A DNA stretch of 64,000 bases, from the NCBI RefSeq assembly GCF_016026235.1, contig NZ_CP065613.1; one strand, given 5' to 3'. Numbering within the stretch: the first letter of the stretch is position 1; every line of letters begins with the position of its first letter. Position numbers and translations under genes: made by a program. This stretch comes from Escherichia coli (GTDB lineage Bacteria; Pseudomonadota; Gammaproteobacteria; Enterobacterales; Enterobacteriaceae). This document shows, in pieces, positions 8,519 to 8,976 of this stretch. Under the pieces are notes generated by a model. The model was given only the letters and a program-made list of their open reading frames with translations. It made no database searches and had not been told where the DNA came from.

Positions 8519-8550
8519 AAATGGCGCTTTATAAGGTGCCATTTTTTTAT
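8519..8550 (+). terminator. Candidate rho-independent terminator downstream of fdnGHI
   Basis: Stem AAATGGCGC / GTGCCATTT with an 8-nt loop, followed by TTTTAT on the plus strand. Confidence 0.35.
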
Positions 8551-8831
8551 TGCGTAACCAGACGGCGTAATCGCGACACATCCACCGTTTTTTCTGCCTC
8601 TGCCAGACTCCAGGCGTTTTGCAGATTCAGCCACATTTGCGGCGAACTGCCGATCACCACGGAAAGTTTAATTGCCATTTCTGGCGTCAAAGCTGTTTTT
8701 CCGGTCAGCAATCGGCTTGCCGTTGAGGGCGCAATTTCCATTGCTCTGGCAAACTCGCGCAGGCTAACATTAAGTTCGTCCAGTGATTCCTGAATAATGT
8801 CCCCCGGGCGGGGATGATTGGCCATTTTCAT
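8547..8831 (-). CDS. yddM: HTH (Xre/HigA-like antitoxin family) regulator YddM
   Basis: Start placed at [45 protein letters not shown] (94 aa), a helix-turn-helix of the HigA/VapI type. Confidence 0.75.
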
Positions 8832-8976
8832 TAGTGTCTTTACTCTCAGTAGCGTTCCTTCTCTGGGAACACTATCATTATTGTTCCTTCCTACGCAACA
8901 ATAATCCATTTAGCCATTTCATGTTGGAGAGTGTGCGATGCTGCGACCCGAACATGGCAGTCGCAGCAAAGGCCTC

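Follow-up and report, generated by a model that had tools for sequence, protein, structure and literature searches.

The gene yddM lies in a window (the whole 64-kb stretch of Escherichia coli DNA that was analysed) in which fdnG-fdnH-fdnI on the plus strand are followed by yddM, adhP and maeA on the minus strand (Table 1). The distance of 145 bp between yddM and adhP given in the original prediction is exact, with the adhP stop codon at 8977. On the other side of yddM, REP/BIME-like palindromic repeats are found at 8330-8545, between this gene and fdnI. This repeat stretch differs in length among strains and carries an IS200-family element in several of them (L009, L051 and L053); the 851-nt query that includes the repeats matched a median of 38 places per genome. 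Further along, the frame of fdnG is split into two ORFs (3728-4315 and 4364-6775), and a selenocysteine insertion element (Rfam SECIS_3, 84.3 bits) was found in this gene at 4310-4368; the break is presumably an in-frame UGA selenocysteine codon.

Table 1. Features of the yddM locus, in positions of the window
Feature	Position	Strand	Description	Basis
fdnI	7665-8318	plus	convergent downstream neighbour of yddM	tblastn; annotation
Terminator-like hairpin with T-run	8519-8544	plus	between the REP-like repeats and the yddM stop codon	
yddM CDS	8547-8831	minus	94 aa, Xre-type HTH; antitoxin or regulator of the HigA family	ORF, profiles and RefSeq orthologues
yddM-adhP spacer	8832-8976	minus	145 bp; the orthologous spacer has 463 bp where higB is present	
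CACTA, putative vestige of higB	8832-8836	minus	just before the yddM ATG; last higB codon (His92, CAC) and stop	alignments
Putative operator region	8853-8905		four half-sites	inverted repeats
First half-site, TGTTGC	8895-8900	minus		
Second half-site, GGAACA	8882-8887	minus		
Third half-site, TGTTCC	8866-8871	minus		
Fourth half-site, GGAACG	8853-8858	minus		
Stem-loop GCTGCGAC-N12-GTCGCAGC	8940-8967	minus	just past the adhP stop codon	inverted repeat
adhP	8977-9987	minus	upstream neighbour, same strand as yddM	tblastn (100% over 336 aa); RefSeq

The product of yddM is an Xre/HigA-type HTH protein, as had been proposed. It scores 92.8 bits (E 8.5e-27) against the NCBIfam equivalog TIGR02607, 'HigA family addiction module antitoxin', for which the cut-off is 47.7 bits; residues 3-81 align with positions 1-80 of the 81 in the profile, which places YddM in the HigA family. 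The HTH domain is recognised by Pfam PF01381 (HTH_3) with 40.3 bits (cut-off 23, E 3.3e-10). The orthologue carries the RefSeq name yddM, and YddM is identical in 93 of 94 residues to a protein of solved structure, 'antitoxin HigA' of E. coli CFT073 (PDB 2ICP and 2ICT), the sole difference being residue 46. Codon 46 (8694-8696, minus strand) reads ACA (Thr) in the window and GCA (Ala) in the other E. coli alleles examined and in 2ICP. This A46T replacement is a private change of the window's yddM; the best database match, FDAARGOS_943, is one base apart over 851 nt, and that base is the codon 46 change. Thr also stands at the aligned position of P. vulgaris HigA.

The claim that no HigB-like ORF lies around yddM was borne out by the search for toxin remnants that had been suggested along with it. 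No match to orthologous HigB was detected by tblastn (E<=1e-3) anywhere in the 64-kb window. When ten HigB proteins (from Escherichia to Erwinia) were compared with 8250-9050 by tblastn at lax settings, the matches were short and scattered, mostly inside yddM or the REP region, and none had an E below 0.01 in a database of 800 nt; blastn-short with the higB gene against the same interval returned noise only. The spacer holds no recognisable HigB-like (PF05015) coding sequence or pseudogene. In a complete HigBA module the cognate toxin gene adjoins higA, upstream of it and in the same operon; such a gene is absent from the window. Nothing sizeable of a toxin gene remains beside yddM, and only ∼5-8 nt (CAC and the former stop codon) are traceable to higB. 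Rearranged fragments of higB within the spacer were also considered and rejected: the k-mers shared on either strand are those of the hairpin, the half-sites and the junction word ATAATGA.

Toxin-bearing and toxin-less alleles

E. coli NRG857C has a higB gene of 279 nt in the adhP-yddM interval; the stop codon of this gene and the yddM ATG share 1 nt (TGATG). The HigB protein (92 aa) matches the HigB-like toxin family PF05015 with 63 bits and aligns over its full length with P. vulgaris HigB at 56% identity. At the same adhP-yddM position higB was found in 1331 of 5426 complete E. coli genomes (24.5%), including UTI89 and the E. coli type strain. A toxin-less spacer is present in 4081 genomes (∼75%): ∼3020 have the window type and 1061 a type first exemplified here by E. 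coli E2863 (E2863-type), whose spacer is 86% identical to that of the window type. The gene yddM itself is nearly universal, as it was found in 5412 of the 5426 genomes (99.7%), in 5408 of them at a coverage of at least 80%. Since 1331 and 4081 add up to 5412, the two states partition the species.

The higB gene is disrupted in a part of the toxin-bearing genomes. An allele with a −1 frameshift in higB has an exact match in 545 complete genomes (∼10%) and is annotated as a pseudogene, for example, in AZ161 (L002, ∼2085-2100). The frameshift amounts to another way of losing the toxin here, independent of the deletion, and higB without detected disruption is present in at most ∼786 genomes (14%). 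The O157:H7 strain TR01 (L004, locus 1201-1345) was considered as a second deletion type, retaining the last 46 nt of higB, and rejected. In its 145-bp spacer the 34 nt after the hairpin and the 45 nt before yddM are of the toxin-bearing type, while the middle 29 nt are of the window type; because each replaced block is exactly as long as its window-type counterpart (34 and 45 nt), this sequence fits an artefact of reference-guided consensus building.

A scan of one genome per bacterial species revealed 41 loci with YddM relatives. The gene order adhP-higB-yddM-fdnI occurs in E. albertii, in an Escherichia cryptic-clade genome and in two divergent representatives labelled 'E. coli', and the pair higB-yddM stands beside fdnI in many Citrobacter, a Pluralibacter, an Enterobacter and one further enterobacterium. 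An open higB frame lies directly upstream of the yddM relative at 33 of the 39 informative species-representative loci. Five loci have a decayed higB (Citrobacter sp. FP75, C. portucalensis, two Xenorhabdus and Chimaeribacter californicus); decay of the toxin with retention of the antitoxin is a recurrent event. Given that about one in four E. coli genomes, and the outgroups as well, have higB at this same position, the paired state is ancestral and the toxin-less state of the window is derived. The original prediction had left a choice between an orphan antitoxin-type regulator and a gene whose toxin partner has been lost. The synteny comparison it called for (1331 E. coli genomes together with E. 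albertii, Citrobacter, Pluralibacter and Enterobacter) upholds both, as the two descriptions refer to the same thing. We also observed a 214-nt contig (L040, coverage ∼1) labelled Clostridium sp. CMCC3677, which encodes the first 36 residues of YddM with 100% identity; the contig most likely entered that assembly as an E. coli contaminant.

The deletion and the upstream region

Alignment of the window spacer with the 463-bp spacer of toxin-bearing alleles leaves two gaps, one of ∼272 bp over higB and one of 46-51 bp directly after the hairpin that follows adhP. This hairpin, likely the adhP terminator, is the last stretch with identity of ∼97% (36 of 37 positions) between toxin-less and toxin-bearing alleles; the two classes differ at 34 of 1011 positions in adhP, at 9 of 285 in yddM and at 1 of 37 in the hairpin. 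Beyond it, the window sequence 8832-8939 is 55% identical to positions 2361-2510 of the toxin-bearing allele L001, with the flanking genes at ∼97%. Such a contrast between the 107 nt from the hairpin to yddM and the genes on both sides argues that the window spacer is not the result of a simple clean deletion from a present-day toxin-bearing allele.

The same low identity of these 107 nt makes the left breakpoint impossible to place to the base. Three positions would fit: the repeats ATGAA/ATGAA (a deletion of 272 bp), the match AGACAC/CAC, and a point just after the fourth half-site, which would leave ∼23 nt of the 3′ end of higB; none of the three is preferable. At the right end, the higB-yddM junction reads ...TATCACTGATGAAAATGG in toxin-bearing alleles, ...GACACTGATGAAAATGG in the E2863-type and ...GACACTAATGAAAATGG in the window. 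The stop codon at the end of higB is TGA in the toxin-bearing and E2863-type alleles and TAA in the window, owing to a change at 8832. Judging from these alignments, what survives of higB at the window junction, CACTAATG, would be at most its last codon and the mutated stop.

Inverted repeats in the rest of the spacer outline a putative operator with four half-sites (Table 1), separated in the window by 7, 10 and 7 nt; across alleles the fourth half-site is GGAAC(G/A). A perfect inverted repeat of 9 nt, ATTATTGTT/AACAATAAT, is located at 8897-8905 and 8877-8885, and a −10-like stretch (AATAAT/GATAGT) at 8871-8882, where AATAnTGATAG separates the middle two half-sites. This layout is common to the toxin-bearing alleles of E. 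coli, E. albertii, nine Citrobacter loci and seven metagenome contigs. Half-sites that are kept while the spacers between them vary are what one would expect if a dimeric HTH protein used them as operators. A scan of 8300-9050, spacer included, gave no hit to a consensus sigma-70 promoter; genomic SELEX placed a site for the RpoD holoenzyme between adhP and yddM in K-12 (PMC3946193).

Other parts of the promoter region set the two classes apart. The block TTGCGnnnCGCTTTCC occurs in all toxin-bearing promoters, from Escherichia to Citrobacter, and is absent from the window, whose promoter type is about equidistant from those of toxin-bearing E. coli, E. albertii and Citrobacter. A pattern search of metagenomes for a toxin-bearing allele with the window-type promoter returned none, a negative of little power because the broader control pattern matched seven contigs only, all with the toxin-bearing promoter type. 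Nor did a blastn 'distant' search of E. coli genomes find a paralogous donor sequence for the window-type promoter.

Toxin-less alleles also differ from one another in this region. Between the window and E2863 (L007), the 11 nt inside the ATTATTGTT/AACAATAAT repeat are exact reverse complements of each other (GCGTAGGAAGG versus CCTTCCTACGC), so that the first operator-like palindrome is inverted in place between the two toxin-less types, with the one imperfect half-site moved from the left arm to the right arm. AST215 (L008) and ST38 (L009) have a spacer of 116 bp, the product of a 29-bp deletion between two direct repeats GAAGGAAC (window 8854-8890); the first and fourth half-sites are fused there and the −10-like stretch is gone.

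The promoter region of the window may be read in yet another way. After the loss of higB the yddM promoter might have been actively rebuilt, not merely trimmed: all of it except the four half-sites would have been replaced or have diverged to 55% identity, the TTGCGnnnCGCTTTCC block would have been dropped, and the O1 palindrome would have been lengthened to 9+9 nt. YddM would then have been recruited as a free-standing regulator or as a permanent defence against HigB toxins that enter the cell. We mention this scenario tentatively and find it rather doubtful; if true, it would present antitoxin domestication that can be traced within one species.

Retention of the solitary antitoxin gene

Solitary antitoxin genes are common, and an antitoxin left without its toxin is an ordinary state for such systems; what these genes mean is debated (relic, regulator or anti-addiction device). 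We conclude, with a probability of about 0.85, that yddM encodes the antitoxin of a chromosomal higB-higA type II operon and has outlasted the toxin gene, which was deleted, and that its product likely acts as a repressor still. The common ancestor of Escherichia and Citrobacter would have had a higB-higA operon flanked by adhP and fdnI. The lineage that led to the window would then have lost higB (∼0.28 kb) by deletion, with a further 46 bp of upstream sequence missing as well, and yddM would have been left behind a short, remodelled promoter that retained the four operator-like half-sites. By analogy with P. vulgaris HigA, the nearest relative that has been studied (PMC12266136), YddM would form HTH dimers that bind these inverted repeats and so keep yddM repressed even with no toxin present. 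Its retention may be due to some use, either in the regulation of a few other sites, in view of the ChIP-exo peaks and palindromic motif obtained for K-12 YddM (PMC6237786), or in the neutralisation of related plasmid-borne HigB toxins. The ability to neutralise a toxin is suggested by orthology to higB-paired copies that encode an identical protein.

Variation among alleles points to conservation of the protein. All 11 intact RefSeq-annotated E. coli alleles that were fetched, with the toxin or without it, encode the same protein, WP_000781370.1. Of the 11 sites that vary among eight toxin-less yddM alleles, 10 are synonymous; the remaining one, A46T of the window, is non-synonymous. With about three non-synonymous sites per synonymous site, and with recombination with toxin-bearing lineages ignored, the binomial P of the 10:1 split in these eight alleles is estimated as ∼1e-5 to 1e-3 under neutrality, depending on the mutation spectrum assumed. 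Such a split would thus be very unlikely for a neutrally evolving gene, and yddM does not appear to be decaying.

YddM could also serve as an antitoxin in trans, against HigB toxins encoded elsewhere in the genome or on plasmids and phages ('anti-addiction'), a role that overlaps with the explanation given above and does not exclude it. HigB relatives with 30-57% identity to the lost partner are encoded by 538 plasmids (99 of them from Escherichia), and the YddM protein is unchanged from its higB-paired version. However, with plasmid HigBs less than 60% identical, a usually narrow specificity of antitoxins and no HigB homologue in the 64-kb window, we consider this role unlikely.

It is quite improbable that yddM is a functionless relic that has been drifting toward loss since the toxin disappeared. 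The gene is dispensable: it is interrupted by a 1-nt frameshift in ETEC H10407 (L054) and truncated by a Tn3-family element (TnAs1) in E. coli E6474 (L055), such pseudogenes being rare. The Keio knockout is viable and has been reported, with no complementation, to be hypersusceptible to epetraborole (PMC12457515). The lack of a promoter consensus, and the 116-bp alleles devoid of half of the operator-like and −10-like region, would suit a relic too. Nevertheless, a decaying gene would hardly be kept at a coverage of at least 80% in 5408 of 5426 genomes, with one and the same protein in both allele classes and ten synonymous changes to one non-synonymous among the toxin-less alleles. DNA binding in vivo speaks against a relic as well: in a ChIP-exo report on candidates of K-12 (PMC6237786), YddM is not among the six without peaks and is among the six with a MEME motif, and the consensus motifs are called palindromic.

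The reverse order of events, with yddM always solitary here and higB inserted later in some E. coli lineages, is strongly disfavoured. A gain might account for the presence of higB in only 24.5% of complete E. coli genomes and for the marked difference between the promoter regions of the two allele classes. Yet the outgroups have the higB-yddM pair at the same place (on the fdnI side, and on the adhP side where adhP is adjacent), the toxin-bearing promoter is nearly identical in E. coli and E. albertii, and in the toxin-less E2863-type allele the yddM ATG is joined to what was the terminus of higB, CAC-TGA. We give next to no credence to an unrecognised small toxin encoded in the 145-bp spacer or overlapping yddM: short ORFs do exist (8834-8980, plus strand, 48 aa; 8878-8955, minus strand, 25 aa) and the yddM frame can be extended by 26 in-frame codons from 8909, but the spacer ORFs have no homology, a 1-nt indel in the alignment with neighbouring allele types breaks the frame of the plus-strand ORF, the ATG of the 25-aa ORF, which is lost among the neighbouring allele types, sits in a hairpin loop that is different in the E2863-type allele, and the 29-bp deletion alleles break the spacer ORF frames also.

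Relation to known systems

The finding that yddM survives as the antitoxin of a lost pair is already known in outline. Bustamante and Vidal (PMC7232551, 2020) described the NRG857c pair as TA20 (ParE-2/HigA-2, 1,526,229-1,526,791) and stated that HS and K-12 encode only the antitoxin partner at this locus, and the structure of the orthologue has been solved. Our analysis adds the population counts, the polarity given by outgroups, the CAC-stop vestige, the conserved half-sites, the selection signal and the promoter divergence. The orphan yddM leaves the understanding of toxin-antitoxin systems unchanged. What the locus offers is a series within one species, from higB without detected disruption (∼14% of genomes) through frameshifted (∼10%) to deleted higB (∼75%). 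With an identical antitoxin in the intact annotated alleles and half-sites that are kept, this makes it a convenient system for asking why antitoxins outlive toxins.

The closest known counterpart is HigA of CFT073 (2ICP/2ICT), the 94-aa orthologue of YddM that differs from it at a single residue. In the related B2 strains NRG857C and UTI89 and in the E. coli type strain, higB stands directly upstream, while in the window it is gone; CFT073 shares the toxin gene of this locus with NRG857c (PMC7232551).

HigB-HigA of the P. vulgaris plasmid Rts1 (4MCT/4MCX, 6CHV) belongs to the same family and has the same reversed order, with the toxin first; its HigA is ∼42% identical to YddM and its HigB, as given above for NRG857C, 56% identical to the lost partner. 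In the P. vulgaris system the −35 and −10 elements are covered by a pair of inverted-repeat operators to which HigA binds as a dimer, and repression by HigA without its toxin is no weaker than that by the HigB-HigA complex (PMC12266136). By this analogy, toxin-free autoregulation by a solitary YddM is plausible. The Rts1 system differs in that it is plasmid-borne and complete, and its operator sequences and spacing are unlike those of the window, where the putative half-site pairs are 29 bp apart from centre to centre.

K-12 YbaQ (2EBY) is another solitary Xre/HigA-type protein (E 5.9e-9 to YddM); it differs from YddM as a distant paralogue of 113 aa at another locus. The partner of YbaQ (ParE-1/HigB-like) is present in NRG857c and absent from K-12 and HS (PMC7232551), and YbaQ, too, gave ChIP-exo peaks in K-12, according to PMC6237786. 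The HigB-HigA pair of K-12 (ygjN-ygjM) shares with the yddM locus the name and the toxin-first layout; it is of a different subfamily and not YddM's partner, and no match of the K-12 HigB (ygjN) type was found in the window. Its distribution is the mirror image of that of the yddM pair, as K-12 and HS have the whole ygjN-ygjM pair, and NRG857c and CFT073 an orphan higA only (PMC7232551).
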